A stretch of DNA of 52,219 nt from an uncultured Bacilli bacterium (lineage in GTDB: Bacteria; Bacillota_I; Bacilli_A; RF39; UBA660): positions 1 to 52,219 of the forward strand of contig CALVKE010000025.1 of NCBI GenBank assembly GCA_944332535.1, given 5' to 3'. Below, piece by piece: positions 22,439-43,282 of this stretch. How positions within the stretch are numbered: the first letter of the stretch is position 1; each line of letters starts with the position of its first letter. Below the pieces are notes generated by a model. It saw only the letters and a list, made by a program, of their open reading frames with translations, had not been told where the DNA came from and did not search any database. The translations under genes were made by a program, and so were the position numbers.

Positions 22439-23329
22439 TTAATGATTGGAAGCTCCAATAATTTCTAAGATTCGATTTAGATCATTGTTGTTTTCAAAGG
22501 AAATAACGATTTTTTTGTTTTTTATTTTTACTTTTGTTCCTAATCGATCAAAAAGAGATTCTTCTATATATTTATATTCATTATTTCTAGGTACTTTTTG
22601 AAGAGGATTACGTTTTCTAAAATCTCCTTTGGTAACAATGTCTTCGACTTCTCTGACACTTAAATGTTCGTTTACGATACGATTAGCTAAGGTTAATACT
22701 TTTTCGTCGTCTTCAATTTTACTTAGAATTCTAGCGTGTCCCATGGAAATTTGATCTTTCATGACAAATGTTTTCACTAGTTCTGGCAAAGATAAAAGTC
22801 CTATTGTATTCGTAATGTGAGTACGACTTTTTCCAAGTCGACGTCCTAGTTCTTCTTGCGTTAAGCAAAGCGTATCGAGTAATTTACGATAAGCTTCGGC
22901 TTCTTCTAAAGGATTGAGGTTTTCTCTTTGTAAGTTTTCCAAAAGGGCAATTTCCATCATTTGGGCATCGCTAAAATCACGAACAACGGCAGGAATAGTT
23001 GTTTTTCCGGCAAGTTGAGAAGCTTTTACCCGTCGTTCTCCGGCAATGATATCGTATCCTTTAATGCTTTTCTTTACAATAATAGGTTGGAATACTCCAT
23101 AATTTTTGATAGATTCTGCTAATTCTTCTAGTTTTTCTTGATCAAAGACTTGCCGTGGTTGATAAGGGTTCGCCCGAAGGGATGAAATCTCTACCTCTAT
23201 AATTGCATCCTTTGGAGCTTGTTCGATAATTTTTTCTTCTACTTTTTCATAGTCGATTGGCTCATTGTTAAACAATTCTTCTAGTCCACGTCCAAGAGCT
23301 CTTCTTTTATTGTTGTCCATTTCTTGCAA
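22439..23329 (-). CDS. parB: Chromosome partitioning protein ParB/Spo0J (parS-type recognition helix)
   Basis: 296-aa ORF with the GERR CTP-binding box (IIAGERRVKA); HTH region GKSRTHITNTIGLLSL...SMGHAR carries ParB-type residues (R, T, G) at the positions reported to separate parS from NBS recognition. Confidence 0.93.
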   Translation of the reverse strand: MQEMDNNKRRALGRGLEELFNNEPIDYEKVEEKIIEQAPKDAIIEVEISSLRANPYQPRQVFDQEKLEELAESIKNYGVFQPIIVKKSIKGYDIIAGERRVKASQLAGKTTIPAVVRDFSDAQMMEIALLENLQRENLNPLEEAEAYRKLLDTLCLTQEELGRRLGKSRTHITNTIGLLSLPELVKTFVMKDQISMGHARILSKIEDDEKVLTLANRIVNEHLSVREVEDIVTKGDFRKRNPLQKVPRNNEYKYIEESLFDRLGTKVKIKNKKIVISFENNNDLNRILEIIGASNH

Positions 23330-24095
23330 TCACTTCCTTTGCTAAATTAATATAAGCTTCCGATCCACGACTTTTGGGATCATAAGCTAATATCGGTTTT
23401 CCATGACTTGGTGCTTCCGTTAAACGAATTAATCTTGGAATAATCGTATCATACACTCTTTCTTTAAAGTAACGGCGAATATCTTCTACTACTTCTAGTC
23501 CTAAGTTCGTTCTAGAATCTAACATGGTAAGAAGTACTCCTTCAATATCCAAATTAGGATTCAAGTTTTTCTGTGCTAACATGATGGTATTTAACAATTG
23601 CATAATTCCTTCCAGTGCAAAAAATTCGCATTGTACCGGAATAATTACAGAATCCGATGCAGTTAGGGCATTGGTCGTAATCAAGCCTAGCGATGGGGGA
23701 CAATCAATAATCATAAAATCAAAGGTGTTTTTCAATTTTTCGATCGCATTTTTTAGCTGGGATCCTTTCGAAAAATTTTCTTCCGTCTTACTTTTTTCAA
23801 TCAACTCGATATCTACTCCTGCTAAATTAATCGTTGCTGGTAGCACATATAAATTACGATATCTCGTCTTTACAATAGCTTCTTCTACCGGACATTTTCC
23901 AGTAATCACATCATAAACACTCTTATCGATATCTCCTTTATTAATTCCAACTCCCGTCGTCGTATTTCCCTGAGGGTCTAAGTCAATCAATAACACTCTT
24001 TTTCCAAGATATGCTAAAGACGCAGAAAGATTAATGCTGGTCGTTGTTTTTCCTACTCCGCCTTTTTGATTAACTAATGAAATAATCTTCCCCAT
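23307..24095 (-). CDS. parA: Chromosome partitioning ATPase ParA/Soj
   Basis: Deviant Walker A KGGVGKTT; the ATG at 24095 follows an AAGGTG RBS (the ORF-track GTG at 24104 is also possible). Confidence 0.95.
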   Translation of the reverse strand: MGKIISLVNQKGGVGKTTTSINLSASLAYLGKRVLLIDLDPQGNTTTGVGINKGDIDKSVYDVITGKCPVEEAIVKTRYRNLYVLPATINLAGVDIELIEKSKTEENFSKGSQLKNAIEKLKNTFDFMIIDCPPSLGLITTNALTASDSVIIPVQCEFFALEGIMQLLNTIMLAQKNLNPNLDIEGVLLTMLDSRTNLGLEVVEDIRRYFKERVYDTIIPRLIRLTEAPSHGKPILAYDPKSRGSEAYINLAKEVIARNGQQ

Positions 24096-24189
24096 CTTCT
24101 TCACCTTTTCCTTATAAATCGTTCTTTTTTTATTGTATCAAAATTTTTCTTCTTTTGAAATGACTTTTGTCAAAAAAAAGTAGAAAGTT

Positions 24190-25209
24190 CTACTTTTCCA
24201 GATCTTCTTTATTAATATTAATAATAATTTGGTATTTTCCGCCCATGTCAGTTTCTTCTACTGAAACTTGCATTCCTTTATGTCTAAGTTCTGGAATTAC
24301 ATCTCTTACTAAATTAATAGCGTCTTTTAACTTAAAAGATTCTACAAAATTTGCATCTTTTAGCGAATTGTTGTTAGAATTTGTATTCGTTGGCTGCAAT
24401 AATTCATCCTCTTCTTGGATCATCACCGGACTTGCTGGAGGAGTAAAGGTCGAGAAAGAACTTTCCGTTTTTGGTGGATTCATTCCCGGTTTTGTTTCTT
24501 CGAACGATTCTTTTTCGGAATGAAACTCTATTGGATTTTTTAAAAGGTCTTCTAATTTTGGTGCATTCGACTCTTTCTCTATCATATTTTCTTCCATAGA
24601 AATGTTCGCTGTAGGACTCATTTCTTTAATGGCATGATCTAATTCTCTTACTGTCATTCTTCCACGAATAACGCGGTTTAACATTTCTACTTGCTCATTG
24701 GGATTTTCAATTGCCAATAAACTACGCGCGTGACGTTCTGAAATTTGATCATTTAATAAGGCTTCTTGTACTTCATCTGTTAACGAAAGTAATCTTAATT
24801 TATTGGCGATGGCCGCTTGACTTTTTCCCATCGTTTTCCCTAATTCTTCTTGGGTCATAGAGTCTAACTCTAATATTTTTTGATATGTTCTCGCTTCTTC
24901 AATAGCCGTTAAATCTTTTCTTTGCAGATTTTCTAACAGTGCGACTTTACTTGCTTCTTTATCATCCAAGTTCCGAATAATCGCAGGAATTTTCGTAAGA
25001 CCTGCCAAAGCAGAAGCTTTATATCGTCTCTCTCCGGCAATAATTTCAAACTTTTCTCCAATTTTTCTGACAATAATCGGCTGGATTACCCCATGTTCTT
25101 TGATCGAAGTTGCTAACTCTTTGAGTGCCGTTTCGTCAAATTTTTCTCTTGGTTGAAAACGATTTGGTATAATATCATCTAAATATAGCTCTACTACTTC
25201 ATTTTGCAT
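24190..25209 (-). CDS. noc: Noc-type ParB paralog (NBS-type recognition helix), atypical N- and C-terminal architecture
   Basis: 339-aa ORF in the rsmG-noc-parA-parB position. It has PNRFQPR and GERR boxes. The HTH GKSQAAIANKLRLLSL...ISERHAR carries Noc-type Q, K and R at specificity positions. It has no N-terminal extension and carries a low-complexity insert of roughly 100 aa. Confidence 0.85.
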   Translation of the reverse strand: MQNEVVELYLDDIIPNRFQPREKFDETALKELATSIKEHGVIQPIIVRKIGEKFEIIAGERRYKASALAGLTKIPAIIRNLDDKEASKVALLENLQRKDLTAIEEARTYQKILELDSMTQEELGKTMGKSQAAIANKLRLLSLTDEVQEALLNDQISERHARSLLAIENPNEQVEMLNRVIRGRMTVRELDHAIKEMSPTANISMEENMIEKESNAPKLEDLLKNPIEFHSEKESFEETKPGMNPPKTESSFSTFTPPASPVMIQEEDELLQPTNTNSNNNSLKDANFVESFKLKDAINLVRDVIPELRHKGMQVSVEETDMGGKYQIIININKEDLEK

Positions 25210-31471: not shown

Positions 31472-31649
31472 TTTTCCACAAATTCCACAGGGGTGTGAAT
31501 TCTTTTTTTCACTATGTGTATAATTTTTTCCGCAGTATTGTGGATAACTTGCGTTTCCTCTTTTATAATAAGGAAGTAATTTGTGGATAAAATTGTGGAT
31601 ATCCTGTGGATATTATTTTTTTTCAAATTTAGGACTTCCTTTTTCCACA
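31472..31649. other. oriC, upstream DnaA-box cluster (rpmH-dnaA intergenic)
   Basis: Perfect TGTGGATAA at 31539-31547 and 31582-31590; TGTGGATAT at 31594-31602 and 31605-31613; TTTTCCACA at 31472-31480 and 31641-31649; AATTCCACA at 31481-31489. Confidence 0.88.
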
Positions 31650-38046: not shown

Positions 38047-38057
38047 GAGGTTTGGGG

Positions 38058-40508
38058 ATGGACAGATTAGAACAAAATAATATTGTAAAAGAAGTAAAAG
38101 ACTCTTTTATTGATTATTCTATGAGTGTTATTACAGCAAGAGCAATTCCGGATTTACGGGATGGTTTAAAGCCGGTTCATCGTCGTATTTTATATTCGAT
38201 GTATGAATCTGGTTATACCCCTGATAAACCTCATAAGAAGAGTGCAAAAACAGTCGGAGAGGTTATGGGTACTTACCATCCACATGGAGATAGTTCCATT
38301 TATGAAGCGATGGTTCGAATGGCTCAAGATTTTTCTTATCGGTATATGTTAATTGATGGACATGGTAACTTTGGTAATATAGAAGGTTCTGGTGCTGCTG
38401 CCATGCGTTATACCGAAGCTAGATTGTCTAAGATTTCGCTTGAACTATTAAGAAATATTAATAAAAATACGGTTAATTTTGAATCAAACTATGATGAATC
38501 TACAAAGGAACCTTCTGTGTTACCTTCTCGATTCCCAAATATTTTAGTAAATGGTACAACGGGTATTGCTGTTGGAATGGCTACTAATATTCCACCGCAT
38601 AATTTGAGAGAAGTAATCAATGGATGTGTTGCATATATTGATAATCCTAATATTGATGTAGCTGGATTGATGCAACATATTAAAGGGCCTGATTTTCCAA
38701 CGGGAGCGATTATTTTAGGAAATAGTGGTATCAGAAAAGCTTACGAAACTGGTAGGGGAACGATTACTATTAGAAGTCGTGCTCAAATAGAAGAAAAAAA
38801 TGGTAAGCAATATATTATTATCACAGAAGTTCCATATGGAGTGAATACTTTAGAGTTAAAAAATAAAGTAGCGGAACTTGTACATAATAAAACGATTGAA
38901 GGTATCGCAGATTATCATTCTGATTTGAAGAATGGTATTAAGATTACGATTACTTTGAAAAAGGACGCCAACGCGCAAGTTGTCTTGAATAAATTGTATA
39001 AACATACGGCTTTTCAAACGACTTATGGAATTATTTTCTTGATGCTAGATCAAGGAGTTCCAAAAACACTTGGTTTATATGATATCATTTCAAAATATAT
39101 TGATTTCCAAAAGGAAGTTATTATTCGAAGAACTAAATTTGATTTAGAAAGTGCTGAAAAACGTGTTCATATTTTAGAAGGATTGAAGATTGCTTTAGAT
39201 CATATTGATGAAGTGATTAAATTAATCCGCGGATCGAAATCCGATGAAGAAGCGAAGGCTGGTTTAATTAGTAAATTCGGTCTTTCCGAGGCCCAAGCAA
39301 ATGCAATTCTTGAGATGAGATTACGTCGTTTGACTGGTCTAGAAAGAGAAAAAATTGAAAATGAATTAAATGAGTTATTAGCATTAATCGCTGAATTGAA
39401 AGCCATTTTAAGTAGTGATGAGAGAGTATTAGAAGTTATTAAAAAAGAATTGTTAGAAATTCGCGATAAATATGGTGATGAGAGACGAACGCAAATTGAT
39501 ATGACAGCTATTGAATATATTGAAGACGAATCATTGATACCTATCGAACAAATGATTGTTACTTTAACGAACAAGGGTTATGTTAAGAGAATGCCTGTGG
39601 ATACTTATCGTACACAAAATCGAGGAGGAGTCGGAGTAAAAGGAATGGCAACTAATGAAGAAGATTTTGTGGAAAAAATGATTTTTATGGAAACCCATGA
39701 TTATATTTTATTCTTTAGTAATAAAGGAAAAGTATATCGTATGAAGGGATATGAAATTCCAGAATTTAGCAGACAAAGTAAGGGAGTGCCAATTATTAAT
39801 TTATTACCTTTGGATAAAGGGGAATTGATTACTTCTATCGTTACTTTAGATGCTAGTGAACATGACTATAAGTATTTAATGTTTGCTACTCGAAACGGTA
39901 CTGTAAAACGTACTAATATTGAGGAATTTGATAATATTCGAAATAGTGGAAAAATTGCTATTACTTTAAAAGAAGATGACGACTTGATTTCGGTTAGAAA
40001 GACTACTGGTTCTGATGAGTTTATCATTGGTGCAAGTAATGGTCGTATGGTTCGCTTTAGTGAGGAAGAAGTTAGAGTAATGGGACGTTCTGCTTCTGGA
40101 GTTAAGGGAATTGACTTAGATGGAGCTACTGTGATAGGTGCCGAAGTTATTCAGGGAAATGAAAACGTTTTGATCGTAACAGAAAAAGGATATGGTAAGA
40201 AGACTCCTATTGATGAATATCGTTTAACTCATCGTGGTAGTAAAGGAGTTAAAGCTCTTAATGTTACGGAGAAAAATGGAATGTTAGTTTCATTGAAAGC
40301 AATTAATGGAGATTACGATTTGATGATTATTACAGATAGTGGAGTCATTATGCGTATGCCAATGGATCAGATTTCTACATTAAAGCGAGCAACGCAAGGA
40401 GTTAGACTTATTAATTTAAGAGATGATCAGAAGGTCGCAACAGTTGCTCTCGTAGCAAAAGAGACTAGTGATGAAGTATTAGATGATGATAGTAAAGAGG
40501 ATGCATAA
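38058..40508 (+). CDS. gyrA: DNA gyrase subunit A
   Basis: The ATG at 38058 lies 7 nt after TAGGAGG; QRDR region ([17 protein letters not shown]), active-site AAMRYTE and a beta-pinwheel CTD. Confidence 0.98.
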
Positions 40509-40528
40509 AATGCATGCCTCTTTTTTTT
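40497..40528 (+). terminator. gyrA terminator
   Basis: Hairpin GAGGATGCAT-AAA-ATGCATGCCTC followed by T8. Confidence 0.7.
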
Positions 40529-40580
40529 GTGGATAAAAATATATTGGTTAAATAATACTCTGTGGAAATTTTAAATTTAT

Positions 40581-40604
40581 ACAATGTTTCACGTGAAACA
40601 TTGT
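40581..40604. repeat. Unit 1: solo parS, 24-bp perfect palindrome ACAATGTTTCACGTGAAACATTGT
   Basis: Core TGTTTCACGTGAAACA matches the parS consensus; no CCCGGG palindrome follows. Confidence 0.85.
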
Positions 40605-40774
40605 TATTTTTTTATCTTTTTTTATTTGTAAAAACTTTTATATAGATTAATTTGTTATGTTTTAATAATGAATTAATATATGTATGATAATGATTTATTT
40701 ATATAAAAATATAAAATAATTTGGTAATTGGAGATAGATAGCTTACATTGTTTTTTATAAAATAGTAAATATTT

Positions 40775-40846
40775 TTGCACATGTTTCACGTGAAACATTG
40801 TCAATTTGTGAATAAAAAAACATAAATTATTTCCCGGGAAATAATT
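40775..40846 (+). repeat. Unit 2: parS (40781-40798) + NBS (40825-40846)
   Basis: TTGCAC-ATGTTTCACGTGAAACAT-TGTCAATTTGTGAAT..-AATTATTTCCCGGGAAATAATT; centre-to-centre 46 bp. Confidence 0.88.
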
Positions 40847-41120
40847 TGGTTAGCAAGTATTTCATTTATTATAAAAAAATTAATATAAAATTTTATACAA
40901 GTATGTTAGGTGCTTTACTATTATATAATTTATATCAGTTAAATAGCTTTTACTTATTATCGGAACTTTATATTTTTAAAATGTCTCATGATAAGTATTT
41001 AAATAAAATAGTAAATTTATTTCCCAGAAATGAAATTTATTTAATTATAAAGGAAAAAATAAAACTAAAAATTAAGGATAATTAGAAATAATAATTTAAT
41101 TTAGTATGGATTAACATTTT

Positions 41121-41190
41121 TTGCACATGTTTCACGTGAAACATTGTTATTTTGTGAATTAAAAGTAAAAATTATTTCCCGGGAAATAAT
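41121..41190 (+). repeat. Unit 3: parS (41127-41144) + NBS (41170-41190)
   Basis: Both palindromes perfect; centre-to-centre 45 bp. Confidence 0.88.
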
Positions 41191-41304
41191 CTTCTTCTTA
41201 AAAAAATATAATTTATAATAGAAATAATAAAATATTAAGGAAGTTATATAAATAGTATTAAAAAAATAGATATACTATTTATATTCAGATAAATTTAATA
41301 TTTT

Positions 41305-41374
41305 TTACACATGTTTCACGTGAAACATTGTCAGTTTGTGGATTAAAAGTGAATTTATTTCCCGGGAAATAATT
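41305..41374 (+). repeat. Unit 4: parS (41311-41328) + NBS (41355-41372)
   Basis: Both cores perfect; 5' flank TTACAC instead of TTGCAC; centre-to-centre 44 bp. Confidence 0.88.
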
Positions 41375-41661
41375 TTTTAAAACTTTTTCATTTTATTTTA
41401 CTACAATAATTATTTATTATATAAGATTAATACAAAGTTAATATAACATATGATGATAGATGATTTTATATTATATAAATTTATATTTGGAAAATATATC
41501 TTATGATGAAGTAATAAAAAATTGTTAGAAAGCACTATATGCAAAATAATAATAATAATAACTTTTTAAAATAAGATTTTTATTTATTATAAAAAATATT
41601 ATTTTAATTATAGATATTAAGATGAACAAAAATATATTTTAATTAGTATGAACTAATATTT

Positions 41662-41732
41662 TTGCACATGTTTCACGTGAAACATTGTCAATTTGTGAAT
41701 TAAAGATATAAATTATTTCCCGGGAAATAATT
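41662..41732 (+). repeat. Unit 5: parS (41668-41685) + NBS (41711-41732)
   Basis: Both palindromes perfect; centre-to-centre 45 bp. Confidence 0.88.
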
Positions 41733-41915
41733 TGCATAATCTTTTTATATTAATTTTTAATATTTACAATGTTTTTTTGTTTTCCTATATAAGGAATTAA
41801 GTTTATATATAATAATATAAATAGAAATTTTATTTTTTTGTAGATTTTCATTTTTTAATATATAGTAGTAAAGATCGTATCAGTAGAATACTAGATAAGT
41901 AATCAAGAAAAAATT

Positions 41916-41987
41916 TTGCACATGTTTCACGTGAAACATTGCTATTTTTGAAATTAAAAAAAGAAAATTATTTCCCGGGAAATAATT
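41916..41987 (+). repeat. Unit 6: parS (41922-41939) + NBS (41966-41987)
   Basis: Both palindromes perfect; centre-to-centre 46 bp. Confidence 0.88.
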
Positions 41988-42163
41988 TAATACAATTTTA
42001 ATATTTGCTATTTCAAATGAATAATTGAAAATAGAAATCTATATGGGTAAGTTATTAAACTCTATTTATATAGGTGAATGATATTTAAAAAAATTCTTTT
42101 TAAATAAATATTTTGTATTAGTATGAAACTTATTAAAAATATTATTTATTATTATAAAAAAAT

Positions 42164-42235
42164 TTGCACATGTTTCACTTGAAACATTGTCATTTTTGAA
42201 ATTAAAAAAAGAAAATTATTTCCCGGGAAATAATT
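42164..42235 (+). repeat. Unit 7: degenerate parS (42170-42187, G->T at 42179) + NBS (42214-42235)
   Basis: ATGTTTCACTTGAAACAT has one central mismatch; the NBS is perfect; centre-to-centre 46 bp. Confidence 0.85.
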
Positions 42236-42338
42236 TTTATTGAGTTCGCACCCAAAGGTATAACTTTTTTTAAATAAAAATAGATATATTAAAGATTATA
42301 GGATAAACTTTTAAAGTTTAGATAAATCTATAGTTTTT

Positions 42339-42410
42339 TTGCACATGTTTCACGTGAAACATTGTCGTTTTTAAAATTAAAAAAGTAAAATTATTTCCCG
42401 GGAAATAATT
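42339..42410 (+). repeat. Unit 8: parS (42345-42362) + NBS (42389-42410)
   Basis: Both palindromes perfect; centre-to-centre 46 bp. Confidence 0.88.
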
Positions 42411-42588
42411 TTAAATATCTTTTCTTAGAATTTAGTATGGAGATAGTCTATTTGTTAAAGTAAATATAAACTCTATTTAATCATAAAAGACTTTATATTA
42501 TTTTATATTCATATTAGACTTAATTTTCTTTATAAAAGCCATAATAGAAAATTTGTTTATGTCTAAAATTGGTTTAACTCTAAAAAAT

Positions 42589-42659
42589 TTGTATATGTTT
42601 CACGTGAAACATTGTTAATTTGTGAATAAAAAATAAAAATTATTTCCCGGGAAATAATT
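42589..42659 (+). repeat. Unit 9: parS (42595-42612) + NBS (42638-42659)
   Basis: Both palindromes perfect; 5' flank TTGTAT; centre-to-centre 45 bp. Confidence 0.88.
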
Positions 42660-42705
42660 TAGTGAAATTATAATTTTATTTATTTAAAAAAATATAAAGG
42701 TAGGC

Positions 42706-42734
42706 TTGCAATTATTAGAAGAATATTGTATTAT
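42706..42734 (+). promoter_or_regulatory. Candidate sigma-A promoter of the SRP RNA
   Basis: TTGCAA (42706-42711), 17 nt, TATTAT (42729-42734); predicted +1 near G42741. Confidence 0.5.
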
Positions 42735-42740
42735 TAATAC

Positions 42741-42816
42741 GTGCAATAAATGCGGTGGAACCAGGTCAGGATCGGAAGATAGCATCCTTAACACTTTGCA
42801 TTTATGTGCACTTTTT
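42741..42816 (+). ncRNA. ffs: Signal recognition particle RNA, short (4.5S-like) form
   Basis: Closing stem GTGCAATAAATGC...GCATTTATGTGCAC around the conserved domain IV core CCAGGTCAGGATCGGAAGATAGCATCC (GGAA tetraloop), then a T run. Upstream DNA is unstructured and AT-rich, so no Alu domain. Confidence 0.75.
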
Positions 42817-42835
42817 ATTTTGGTGGTGATTTTAG

Positions 42836-43282
42836 ATGTATCAAAAGAAATTCATGGATATTGCCTATAAAGAATCTATGAAAGCATTTAAAGAAAATGA
42901 AGTGCCAATTGGTGCAGTTATTGTAAAAGATGGAACTGTAATTTCTAGAGCGCATAACCAAAAGGAAAAGAAGCAATGTTCTCTTGCTCATGCTGAATTA
43001 TTGGCTATTCGAAAAGCTTCTAAAAAATTAAATAATTGGAGGTTAACTAATTGTGAAATTTATGTCACTTTAGAACCTTGTCCTATGTGTGCTTCGGCCA
43101 TTCATCAAGCTAGAATATCTAAAATATATTATTGTGTAGCAAGAGATAAAAATGATAATTCTACTATTATTCAAAATATTTTAGCTGATAATAATGCGAA
43201 TCATCCTGTGGAAATAGAAGTTGTAGAATACGATGAGAATCTTAAAAATCATTTGCAGGATTTTTTCAAAAAAAAGAGATAA
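42836..43282 (+). CDS. tadA: tRNA adenosine(34) deaminase
   Basis: 148-aa ORF with CDA zinc motifs HAE and PCPMC. Confidence 0.94.
   Translation: MYQKKFMDIAYKESMKAFKENEVPIGAVIVKDGTVISRAHNQKEKKQCSLAHAELLAIRKASKKLNNWRLTNCEIYVTLEPCPMCASAIHQARISKIYYCVARDKNDNSTIIQNILADNNANHPVEIEVVEYDENLKNHLQDFFKKKR

Follow-up and report, generated by a model that had tools for sequence, protein, structure and literature searches.

Interleaved parS and Noc-binding-site palindromes beside gyrA suggest a two-protein centromere in uncultured gut Bacilli

Genes, origin and palindromes of the gyrA-tadA gap

The window (the whole 52,219-bp stretch of DNA analysed) comes from an uncultured Bacilli bacterium and contains gyrA, an SRP RNA (Rfam, 52.8 bits), tadA and dnaA as well as the gene order rsmG-noc-parA-parB. 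A cluster of DnaA boxes upstream of dnaA and the minimum of the cumulative GC skew, which turns at approximately 31-32 kb, support an oriC position at 31515-31590. The non-coding gap between gyrA and the SRP RNA spans 2223 bp (40509-42731) and holds an array of palindromic sites 9-11 kb from oriC (Table 1). In relatives, the array is likewise bordered by gyrA on the left and by the SRP RNA and tadA on the right.

The gap had been described in the earlier note as very AT-rich and free of credible reading frames, and this was borne out by a GC content of 17-23% vs approximately 32% elsewhere. No gene was found in it, the longest ORF being 79 aa with an AT-rich translation, and no Rfam family except the SRP RNA was detected at E≤0.1. 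The sole other Rfam match at E≤1 was RefA9 (42604-42660) with an E-value of 0.11 and 28.6 bits vs a gathering score of 49. Neither a hidden gene nor a hidden RNA was thus found in the gap.

Table 1. Coordinates of the genes, the origin and the palindrome modules in the window. Distances are parS to NBS, centre to centre.
Feature	Coordinates	Strand	parS start	NBS start	Distance (bp)	Remarks
ParB/Spo0J	22439-23329	-				296 aa, presumed parS loader
ParA/Soj-type ATPase	23307-24104	-				265 aa, adjoins parB
Noc orthologue	24190-25209	-				339 aa, presumed NBS loader
DnaA-box cluster	31515-31590	.				upstream of dnaA, marks oriC
dnaA	31700-33052
gyrA	38052-40508	+				left border
Module 1	40584-40601	.	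40585			orphan parS (ATGTTTCACGTGAAACAT), no NBS partner
Module 2	40781-40843	.	40782	40829	46	parS and 16-bp NBS perfect
Relic module	40981-41031	.		41019		decayed parS (ATGTCTCATGATAAGTAT, 12/18 matches); NBS with 1-bp deletion
Module 3	41127-41188	.	41128	41174	45	both perfect
Module 4	41311-41371	.	41312	41357	44	both perfect
Module 5	41668-41729	.	41669	41715	45	both perfect
Module 6	41922-41984	.	41923	41970	46	both perfect
Module 7	42170-42232	.	42171	42218	46	parS with 1 mismatch, NBS perfect
Module 8	42345-42407	.	42346	42393	46	both perfect
Module 9	42595-42656	.	42596	42642	45	both perfect
SRP RNA	42732-42823	+				right border
tadA	42836-43282					right border

At up to two mismatches, the parS sequence TGTTTCACGTGAAACA was matched nine times in the 52-kb window against 0.02 by chance; eight copies are perfect and one carries a G->T change at 42179. 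The Noc-binding site (NBS) ATTTCCCGGGAAAT occurred in eight perfect copies against 0.4 by chance, and all eight also equal the full 16-bp TATTTCCCGGGAAATA, the sequence of the Noc-NBS crystal. The nine parS, eight of them perfect, likewise conform to the 16-bp palindromic parS consensus TGTTNCACGTGAAACA. These identities support both palindromes as the experimentally defined parS and NBS sequences, which differ from each other at only two positions per half-site. The sites are clustered non-randomly: neither parS nor NBS was found outside the gap at ≤2 mismatches within the 52-kb window, and all eight NBS of the contig lie inside 2.1 kb. Eight of the nine parS are paired with an NBS 44-46 bp away, while parS-to-parS intervals are irregular, with 197, 346, 184, 357, 254, 248, 175, and 250 bp, respectively. 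The numbers of sites, their pairing and spacing, and the lack of further copies in the window thus agree with what had been read earlier by eye.

The units form a repeat of approximately 76 bp with the layout TTTTTGCAC-ATGTTTCACGTGAAACAT-TGTCAnTTTGTGAATTAAAA...AAATT-ATTTCCCGGGAAAT-AATTT, and the inter-unit DNA of the window array shows no mutual homology. In module 1, parS is part of a perfect palindrome of 24 bp, and together with the T-run behind it this palindrome scores as terminator-like. In the relic module, the NBS reads ATTTCCC-AGAAAT and ends at 41031.

ParB, ParA and a helix-less Noc orthologue

The identities and coordinates of the ParB, ParA, and Noc-type genes were as the earlier note gave them. 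ParB begins with a peptide of the ParA-interaction type (KRRALGRGLEELF), possesses a ParB_C domain and the CTP motifs GERRxKA (as GERRVKA) and ENLQR, and was matched best in the PDB by B. subtilis Spo0J (6SDK, 4e-62). The Noc orthologue retains GERRxKA and ENLQR as well, and its best PDB matches were the Noc structures 7NG0, 7NFU, and 7OL9 (1e-58), while it scored 286 bits against NCBIfam TIGR04285, under the cut-off of 315. The KorB structures 8QA8 and 8QA9 were among the PDB matches of both proteins. Specificity was predicted from published positions on the Caulobacter ParB scaffold, at which ParB carries R-T-S-G (R173/G201 type) and the Noc orthologue Q-K-S-R, with S rather than K at position 184. 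By these residues, one ParB-type and one Noc-type paralogue are supported as products of the window.

The Noc orthologue contains a disordered acidic and Pro-rich linker (residues ~204-291), with an EDLLK motif, and a small C-terminal domain (residues ~295-333). The AF2 model of the C-terminal 60 aa consisted of a helix and two strands at moderate confidence, and Pfam returned only a non-significant KH match for these 60 aa (E=0.02). The N-terminal amphipathic membrane helix is absent, as the protein begins only at the equivalent of about residue 27 in the B. subtilis protein. A longer N-terminus was excluded by an in-frame TAA eight codons upstream and the lack of an alternative start codon. 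The helix is also missing in 112 of its 120 closest homologues and in 150 diverse representatives. This helix-less family is very diverse, forming 150 or more clusters when grouped at 50% identity, and has disordered linkers of 50 to 550 aa ahead of the C-terminal domain.

B. subtilis Noc without the N-terminal amphipathic helix is non-functional (PMC4331003). Since the orthologue lacks the helix that B. subtilis Noc needs, the label of nucleoid-occlusion clamp is unsafe for it. DNA-membrane tethering as in B. subtilis becomes improbable for the same reason, and the orthologue probably does not hold DNA to the membrane in that manner.

Compared with the Noc-NBS system of B. subtilis and S. aureus (Wu 2009; Adams 2015, PMC4331003; Jalal 2021, PMC8429893), the NBS palindrome is identical, and with B. 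subtilis Noc the orthologue shares its gene position (rsmG-noc-soj-spo0J), the Q-K-x-R residues, the CTP-binding motifs, and the small C-terminal domain. The differences lie in the missing membrane-targeting helix, in the inserted linker, and in the distribution of sites: unlike the approximately 70 NBS scattered over the B. subtilis chromosome, those found here are concentrated beside parS near oriC.

Recurrence, spacing and helical phase among relatives

A pattern scan of species-representative genomes identified the parS-NBS composite in at least 120 loci, and in 116 of the 120 pattern-found loci listed a mixed cluster was located beside gyrA/tadA/dnaX. The composite is not a one-off, and its synteny extends over more than 100 species. 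Searching relatives for both palindromes, as had been proposed, led to mixed clusters at the conserved gyrA-tadA slot. In a second sample of 67 loci, picked on gyrA similarity only, sites occurred just 3' of gyrA in 64 loci and both kinds in 45, while all upstream flanks together held one site. A heterotypic pair within 100 bp was present in only about 29 of these 67 loci, and one common human-gut group possesses a single NBS and, 640 bp on, 5-6 unpaired parS.

In many relatives the two sites alternate strictly in tandem, with as many as 12 units, and where the units are exact there are 6-12 per array with 62-127 bp each. Site density in relatives reached 2.7-4.6 per kb within the gap vs 0.12 per kb outside. 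NBS were approximately 20-fold enriched in the gyrA-tadA gap and occurred occasionally in dnaX (inside it in nine loci) and elsewhere, so the Noc orthologue would not be strictly restricted to the centromere. The matches listed include three complete chromosomes with one 8-kb block apiece, and metagenome-assembled genomes with two blocks represented one array split by assembly. Complete chromosomes of the clade include OZ006970.1, OZ006981.1, and CP091739.1. The array after gyrA explains why assemblies of this clade frequently break just past that gene. No exact copies of the window's Noc and tadA proteins are on record, and a window-specific 26-mer had no match in metagenome contigs.

From species to species, both palindromes are kept without mismatch, but the DNA that separates and flanks them is unrelated. 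Recurrence in the gyrA-tadA slot supports selection on the co-location of parS and NBS. The arrangement characterises a large, uncultured gut clade of Bacilli/'Tenericutes'. Those clade members that carry the array are uncultured.

As a dispersed repeat, the array would be a structural or mobile element (REP/MITE-like, or a set of hairpin terminators), or else a series of unrelated operators controlling the SRP RNA and tadA. The ~76-bp repeat family formed by the units and the terminator-like first parS with its T-run would suit such an origin, which we consider extremely improbable because nothing of the array recurs elsewhere in the 52 kb, viral contigs gave no match to the composite, and relatives hold it in one syntenic slot, with a single block per complete genome among the matches listed. 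Only two palindromes are kept between species, and these are exactly the parS and NBS consensus. Operators are further disfavoured by promoter-like sites, which are not enriched in the gap (25 observed vs 27 expected). On the window scan, the synteny of relatives, and the viral search, a MITE/REP or phage origin was rejected, which upholds the view that this is not a generic dispersed repeat.

The spacers also bear on DnaA. Three TTATNCACA DnaA boxes are present in the gap (at 40528, 40807, and 42621), two of them exactly between parS and NBS, where the DnaA-box-like TTATTCACA occupies 40807-40815 in module 2 and 42621-42629 in module 9; one-mismatch versions of TTATNCACA occur in modules 3-5. 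The array could serve to titrate DnaA as a datA/DBC-like cluster of DnaA boxes, to which the ParB-family sites would be accessories linking segregation to initiation control, and the statement in PMC5540599 that S. aureus Noc controls replication initiation counts in favour of this. It is nevertheless very improbable, as only three boxes are perfect, near-matches are cheap in an AT-rich background, and no third conserved motif was found in the parS-NBS spacers across the species compared.

A universal 45-bp geometry was ruled out, since parS and NBS are approximately 20-100 bp apart in other species. The earlier claim of selection on pairing at constant spacing consequently stands for the recurring co-location, while the fixed 44-46 bp belongs to this genome only; pairing itself holds for the many alternating arrays of relatives, with variable distances and some sites unpaired. 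The parS-NBS distances gather near (n+0.45) helical turns, with R=0.25-0.29 when the period is set to 10.5-10.75 bp, and jitter nulls matched this heterotypic phasing in 0 of 5000 and 0 of 3000 runs. The phasing persists when one distance per species is sampled, and same-type neighbours show no helical phasing. This larger sample was ascertained via one pair at 29-59 bp, while the gyrA-selected sample alone gave the same magnitude and phase without reaching significance (n=34-41; Rayleigh p ~0.09). Intrinsic curvature was rejected as the source, as the window array has no A/T-tract periodicity of 10-11 bp. Rotational phase rather than distance appears to be the conserved quantity.

The phasing also weighs on the reading that two independent systems share the one non-coding stretch of any size close to the origin. 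An ordinary ParB centromere would then lie beside the sites of a Noc that occludes division over the origin region via its NBS cluster, and their interleaving would have no functional meaning. In its favour, parS and NBS share the gap without tight pairing in some relatives, a few NBS are found beyond the cluster, clustering of parS close to oriC is common, and the NBS of B. subtilis avoid the terminus. We judge it unlikely, given that heterotypic but not homotypic distances are phased, that strict alternation over as many as 12 units is seen in many species with unrelated spacers, and that the helix needed by B. subtilis Noc is missing in the orthologue, in most of its closest homologues, and in the diverse representatives.

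A candidate two-protein centromere

With a probability of roughly 0.6, we favour the gyrA-tadA gap as a compound origin-proximal centromere that would load two ParB-family CTP clamps, rather than as a site of classical nucleoid occlusion. ParB would nucleate at the nine parS and close there as CTP clamps; jointly with ParA, and presumably with SMC, it would organise and segregate the origin region. The Noc orthologue would nucleate at the eight interleaved NBS and load its own CTP clamps on the same ~2 kb. With both clamps loaded on the same gene-free DNA, the origin-proximal nucleoprotein complex would contain both paralogues. We infer that each protein binds its own site and that the two, each as a clamp, function together. 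Heterotypic neighbours would be offset by roughly half a turn of the helix, and at (n+0.45) turns the ParB dimers would line up on one side of the DNA, opposite the Noc-type dimers. The linker and conserved C-terminal domain of the Noc orthologue more likely recruit a partner, or help to condense or limit the complex.

A stronger version of this centromere makes the Noc orthologue a second obligate component rather than a nucleoid-occlusion factor, within an ordered two-faced ('Janus') array. Its ParB face would engage ParA and SMC, while its Noc face would recruit a different partner via the linker and C-terminal domain. This version is put forward tentatively, as less likely than not.

The two clamps could also hinder each other. 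As mutual roadblocks or insulators, the nucleation complexes of one paralogue would halt the sliding clamps of the other, and roadblocks at alternating sites would keep the clamps of either kind within the 2-kb gap, off gyrA and off SRP RNA-tadA-dnaX. DNA-bound proteins are able to stop sliding ParB and Noc clamps. ParB- and Noc-CTP clamps slide and escape at free DNA ends, and the sites are held between two conserved essential gene blocks with almost none upstream of gyrA, all of which fits. Rotational phasing is not required by roadblocks, however, and a single edge NBS with unpaired parS, as in some relatives, would trap little, which leaves this explanation quite unlikely.

Under the favoured compound centromere, the array is closest to the ParABS centromeres of Caulobacter, Myxococcus, Corynebacterium, and Streptomyces and to B. 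subtilis Spo0J/parS. It shares with them the 16-bp parS consensus and an origin-proximal location, where a few kb hold several sites; a parAB operon beside oriC encodes the ParA partner and a cognate ParB that carries CTP motifs. Unlike in these systems, parS is interleaved here with the predicted sites of a second ParB paralogue, often in strict tandem units. The parS of B. subtilis are mostly intragenic and spread over hundreds of kb, while those described here cluster in a single non-coding gap, gyrA-tadA, across a large clade.

Plasmid centromeres provide further parallels. F sopC consists of 12 repeats of 43 bp bound by SopB, and P1 parS combines heterologous motifs, box A and box B, and depends on how these are arranged about a bend made by IHF; in both, one ParB protein reads all motifs. 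As in such iteron centromeres, short head-to-tail units each carry a ParB-family palindrome, and the relative rotational placement of the different motifs appears to matter. The difference is that two paralogues are predicted to read alternating motifs here, on a chromosome. KorB-KorA of plasmid RK2, in which a ParB-family CTP clamp depends for its action on a second DNA-binding protein at a neighbouring operator, offers a precedent for heterotypic cooperation, but KorA is unrelated to ParB and the KorB-KorA system silences plasmid transcription, whereas two ParB paralogues would be the partners here, at a chromosomal origin.

Among chromosomal DNA clamps with a CTP switch, ParB and Noc are the two founding members. 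In textbooks, ParB acts at parS near the origin in segregation and Noc at scattered NBS in membrane-linked division control. Here both types of site are woven together at one conserved locus, and the membrane helix on which the textbook mechanism of Noc depends was either lost from this Noc or never present in it. The literature searched, with most subscription journals outside it, contained no description of parS-NBS composites or of a helix-less Noc, and the data suggest a two-protein chromosome "centromere" that is apparently undescribed. If the clamps cooperate, nature would offer in this array a ParB-family centromere of heteromeric make-up, and one 60-bp unit would provide a short defined substrate for CTP-clamp cross-talk. 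It would also inform how Noc evolved from ParB: with only two differing positions per half-site, such arrays could show the divergence of NBS/Noc from tandem parS/ParB. The array moreover allows the centromere to be marked simply by sequence in an abundant group of uncultured gut bacteria.

Sites and modules downstream of gyrA

The replication origin lies at the centre of the window, which is a complete contig. Gene order on the left is ychF, abgT, mscS, parB, parA, the Noc-type ParB paralogue, rsmG, mnmG, mnmE, jag, yidC, rnpA, and rpmH, and on the right dnaA, dnaN, recF, gyrB, gyrA, the array, SRP RNA, tadA, dnaX, ybaB, and recR. The DnaA-box cluster and the turn of the cumulative GC skew at ~31-32 kb put oriC 9-11 kb to the left of the array and 6-9 kb to the right of the two ParB-family genes. 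In Bacillus, gyrA is followed by an rRNA operon.

The ParB/Spo0J site parS (TGTTTCACGTGAAACA) occurs in nine copies, eight of them perfect, against 0.02 expected from shuffles of the window. The Noc-binding site (NBS, ATTTCCCGGGAAAT) occurs in eight copies, all perfect, with 0.4 expected. An NBS follows eight of the parS, with centres 44-46 bp apart, and the first parS is unpaired, while parS-parS distances range from 197 to 357 bp. Neither site was found in the rest of the 52,219 bases at up to 2 mismatches. GC content of the gap is 17-23% versus ~32% in the rest of the window, no ORF exceeds 79 aa, and Rfam yielded no match at E<=0.1 apart from the SRP RNA. The site counts and positions, the paired distance with irregular parS spacing, the AT-rich gap without a credible ORF, and the confinement of both palindromes to it, all described in an earlier note, were reproduced. 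An alignment of the nine units delimits a conserved module of ~76 bp, which takes in the 30-bp spacer between parS and NBS as well as a few bases 5' of parS; the alignment detected no homology in the DNA between modules.

Features of the window and of the gap downstream of gyrA
Feature	Position	Strand	Remark
ParB gene	22439-23329	-	
Noc orthologue gene	24190-25209	-	
DnaA-box cluster	31515-31590		
gyrA stop	40508		left limit of gap
DnaA-box matches in gap	40528-40536, 40807-40815, 42621-42629		
Palindrome of first parS with T-run	40581-40614		
parS copies	40585-42611		one with G->T at 42179
NBS copies	40829-42655		
Decayed tenth module	40981-41031		NBS part at 41019-41031
TTAGTATGRA	41101, 41643, 42118, 42432	+	
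SRP RNA	42732-42823		right limit of gap

Modules 2 and 3 are widely separated, and the decayed module lies between them, with a parS-like ATGTCTCATGATAAGTAT (12/18 matches) and an NBS minus 1 bp (ATTTCCC-AGAAAT), which suggests that units may undergo birth-and-death turnover. Spacers between parS and NBS form two sub-families, modules 2-5 and 9 (...TTTGTGAATTAAAAG...) versus modules 6-8 (...TTTTTGAAATTAAAAAAAGAAAA...), consistent with possible local duplication or gene conversion inside the array. The first, unpaired parS lies within a 24-bp perfect palindrome (ACAATGTTTCACGTGAAACATTGT) that scores, with its T-run, like an intrinsic terminator and could double as the gyrA terminator. All four copies of TTAGTATGRA fall in the array (0.54 expected in the whole window), two of them 26-27 bp upstream of a parS.

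DnaA-box matches (TTATNCACA) number 10 in the window against 2.6 expected. A perfect box (TTATCCACA) lies 20 bp past the gyrA stop, two DnaA-box-like TTATTCACA sit exactly between a parS and its own NBS, and modules 3-5 carry one-mismatch versions (TGTGAATTA, TGTGGATTA). A DnaA-titrating cluster would have three boxes only to draw on, and this reading is third in confidence among four rivals.

ParB and the Noc orthologue

Four positions set the preference for parS or NBS, R-T-A-G in ParB and Q-K-K-R in Noc (Jalal et al. 2020, PMC7383237). ParB orthologues all keep R173 and G201, with lysine at 179 or 184 being permissive (PMC7383237). Aligned to solved structures, the ParB of the window carries R-T-S-G; its top structure match is B. 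subtilis Spo0J (6SDK, 4e-62), and it has a ParA-interaction-type N-terminal peptide, a ParB_C domain, and intact GERRxKA and ENLQR boxes. The Noc orthologue carries Q-K-S-R, its top matches are Noc structures (7NG0 and 7NFU at 1e-58, B. subtilis 7OL9 at 1e-51), and its gene lies between rsmG and parA-parB as noc does in Bacillus. These residues and top matches support, at the level of sequence, both earlier assignments, by which ParB would read parS and the Noc-type protein NBS.

Noc is attached to the membrane by a 10-residue N-terminal amphipathic helix (PMC4331003, PMC8429893); NocNdelta10 is non-functional, and the helix was present in all Noc homologues examined by Adams et al. (PMC4331003). 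In contrast to B. subtilis Noc, the orthologue has no N-terminal membrane helix and starts at the position of B. subtilis residue 27. A longer N-terminus was ruled out because a TAA lies in frame eight codons upstream and no start codon intervenes. Its linker (residues ~204-291) is disordered, acidic, and proline-rich, and in the AF2 model a helix and two strands make up its small C-terminal domain. Against the NCBIfam Noc model the protein reaches 286 bits, short of the 315 cut-off.

The same start was found in 112 of the 120 closest homologues and Q-K-[S/A/T]-R in 117. Among the best 150 representatives at 50% identity, all 150 are without an N-terminal extension and 147 have Q-K-x-R. The N/E/P/S-rich linker, 30 to 545 aa long, accounts for their spread in length from 221 to 798 aa. 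The helix-less, linker-bearing architecture is a family trait. A conserved ~45-aa C-terminal domain (...KG......EE.DF...YQI.IKI.K) follows the linker in the window protein and homologues P0001-P0289, linker and domain occur together in at least 150 clusters at 50% identity, and a short linker motif, EDLL[K/R/A], is present in 74/120 close homologues.

Distribution among relatives and spacing

One genome per bacterial species was scanned for GTTTCACGTGAAAC, 16-46 bases, and TTTCCCGGGAAA. The resulting pattern-found set of at least 120 loci came nearly all from gut or rumen MAGs, labelled in their own records as uncultured Bacilli, Tenericutes, "Mycoplasma sp.", Erysipelotrichaceae, "Clostridium sp. 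CAG:710", and Candidatus Onthousia. The CAG:710 label presumably ties to the RF39/RFN20/ML615J-28 context. That context was taken from PMC10868615. The mixed cluster adjoins gyrA, tadA, or dnaX in 116 of the 120 listed loci (tblastn with window proteins), the same slot as in the window though gyrA identity is only 55-83%. In the gap, density is 2.7/kb for perfect NBS and 4.6/kb for parS, versus 0.12/kb outside. The cross-species consensus is A-TGTTTCACGTGAAACA-T and AAATT-ATTTCCCGGGAAAT-AATTT, and parS-NBS spacers are unrelated in sequence from species to species.

Many listed loci hold strict alternating tandem arrays, such as 11 x (parS-58-NBS-68) in L037, arrays of 12 units in L062 and L092, and arrays of 9 in L061 and L089. 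Copy numbers are lower bounds, since every relative is a MAG or metagenome contig and arrays frequently lie at a contig end. Contigs of related MAGs very often stop inside or just after the array (L001, L005, L013, L018, L019, L056/L078, L062, L089/L094, and many of L121-L200), and in some MAGs its halves lie on separate contigs. Short-read assemblies are evidently broken by the tandem units, and database entries therefore understate array size. The matches listed include one 8-kb block from each of three complete chromosomes, and MAGs with two blocks hold a single array split by assembly. No match to the composite was found among 2.9 million viral contigs. A repeat element, dispersed in MITE/REP fashion as the earlier note had considered, fails every test, with no extra copies in the window and a single block per complete chromosome listed, and ranks last of the four rivals.

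A pattern-independent set of 80 loci was picked from metagenome contigs by gyrA similarity alone (71-83% identity), and sites were counted in the 67 that extend 300 bp or more past gyrA. Within 4 kb downstream, 64/67 have parS and/or NBS (45 both kinds, 10 parS only, 9 NBS only), while all upstream flanks pooled contain one site only. Heterotypic pairs within 100 bp occur in ~29/67. In one common human-gut group, gyrA is followed after 100 bp by a lone NBS and, 640 bp beyond that, by 5-6 unpaired parS. As a general rule, the gyrA-tadA gap is the parS cluster of the clade, usually with NBS too; close interleaving of the window's kind is frequent, not universal.

Isolated perfect NBS lie 1.7-3 kb from the array in some relatives, within dnaX at similar positions in 9 loci (L015, L020, L021, L026, L075, and others) and beside recR in L069, L100, and L103; the window has none there. 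A few contigs of other base composition carry parS-NBS pairs at 46-55 bp outside the gyrA-tadA context, namely L096 (60% GC, labelled Synergistaceae), where they adjoin a parB/noc-like gene, L002 (41% GC, Clostridia), and L098 (45% GC, Erysipelotrichaceae). Such pairs may reflect bin contamination or a wider spread of the pairing.

The fixed parS-NBS distance claimed earlier holds within this genome but not elsewhere, where adjacent centres lie ~20-100 bp apart. Distances peak near 25, 36, 46-48, 57-58, and 68-70 bp, with troughs at 41, 51, 61-64, and 72 bp. In the pattern-found set, with each distance value taken once per locus, the Rayleigh resultant was 0.28 (n=286), and 0.25 once pairs with spacers at least 70% identical were collapsed (222 clusters). 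The best period was 10.5-10.75 bp, and 0/5000 jittered controls reached the observed value. When a single distance was drawn at random for each species (119 loci), R had a median of 0.29 and 94% of resamples reached p<=0.005, while same-type neighbours (parS-parS, NBS-NBS, n=97) stayed at the random level (R ~0.08-0.10). This set of at least 120 loci was itself chosen via the parS-NBS pattern; the phase was unchanged for distances beyond the ascertainment range (R=0.22, n=90). The gyrA-selected set alone gave R=0.24-0.25 at 10.5 bp and phase 5.4, not significant at n=34-41 (Rayleigh p ~0.09), and both sets combined (255 clusters) gave R=0.248 and phase 4.6, reached by 0/3000 controls. Heterotypic neighbours thus prefer ~(n+0.45) helical turns, and the 44-46 bp of the window coincide with the 46-bp peak. 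No A-tract periodicity that would explain the phasing by intrinsic bending was found in the window's array. Helical phasing of heterotypic neighbours is probable, not proven.

A putative compound centromere

The best-supported reading is that the array is a compound, origin-proximal centromere with predicted loading of ParB and the Noc orthologue. ParB would load at parS and the Noc orthologue at NBS, and both would accumulate on one short gene-free segment; the evidence is from sequence, and binding, clamp formation, and cooperation of the two proteins are what we infer from it. Foremost among the rivals in confidence is that two independent systems share the sole free DNA near oriC, followed by mutual roadblocks that confine sliding clamps. 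Joint action rather than mere neighbourhood can be argued from the co-location conserved across deep divergence, from palindromes that stay perfect while spacers drift freely, and from phasing specific to heterotypic neighbours. The compound centromere was not classed as nucleoid occlusion because the membrane helix is missing; more likely, the Noc orthologue would add a second interaction surface through its linker and C-terminal domain, or would shape or limit the ParB complex.

Already known are parS clusters, NBS sites, and the role of both ParB and Noc as CTP clamps. Repeated units of interleaved parS and NBS that keep one syntenic position throughout a large clade, the apparent rotational phasing of parS versus NBS, and a very diverse Noc-orthologue family without a membrane helix were undescribed in the literature searched, which covered few subscription journals. 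The composite is not unique to the window, with at least 120 species-level loci. The parS-NBS array is of high interest for the ParB/Noc field, and its 60-bp unit suits existing in vitro assays.
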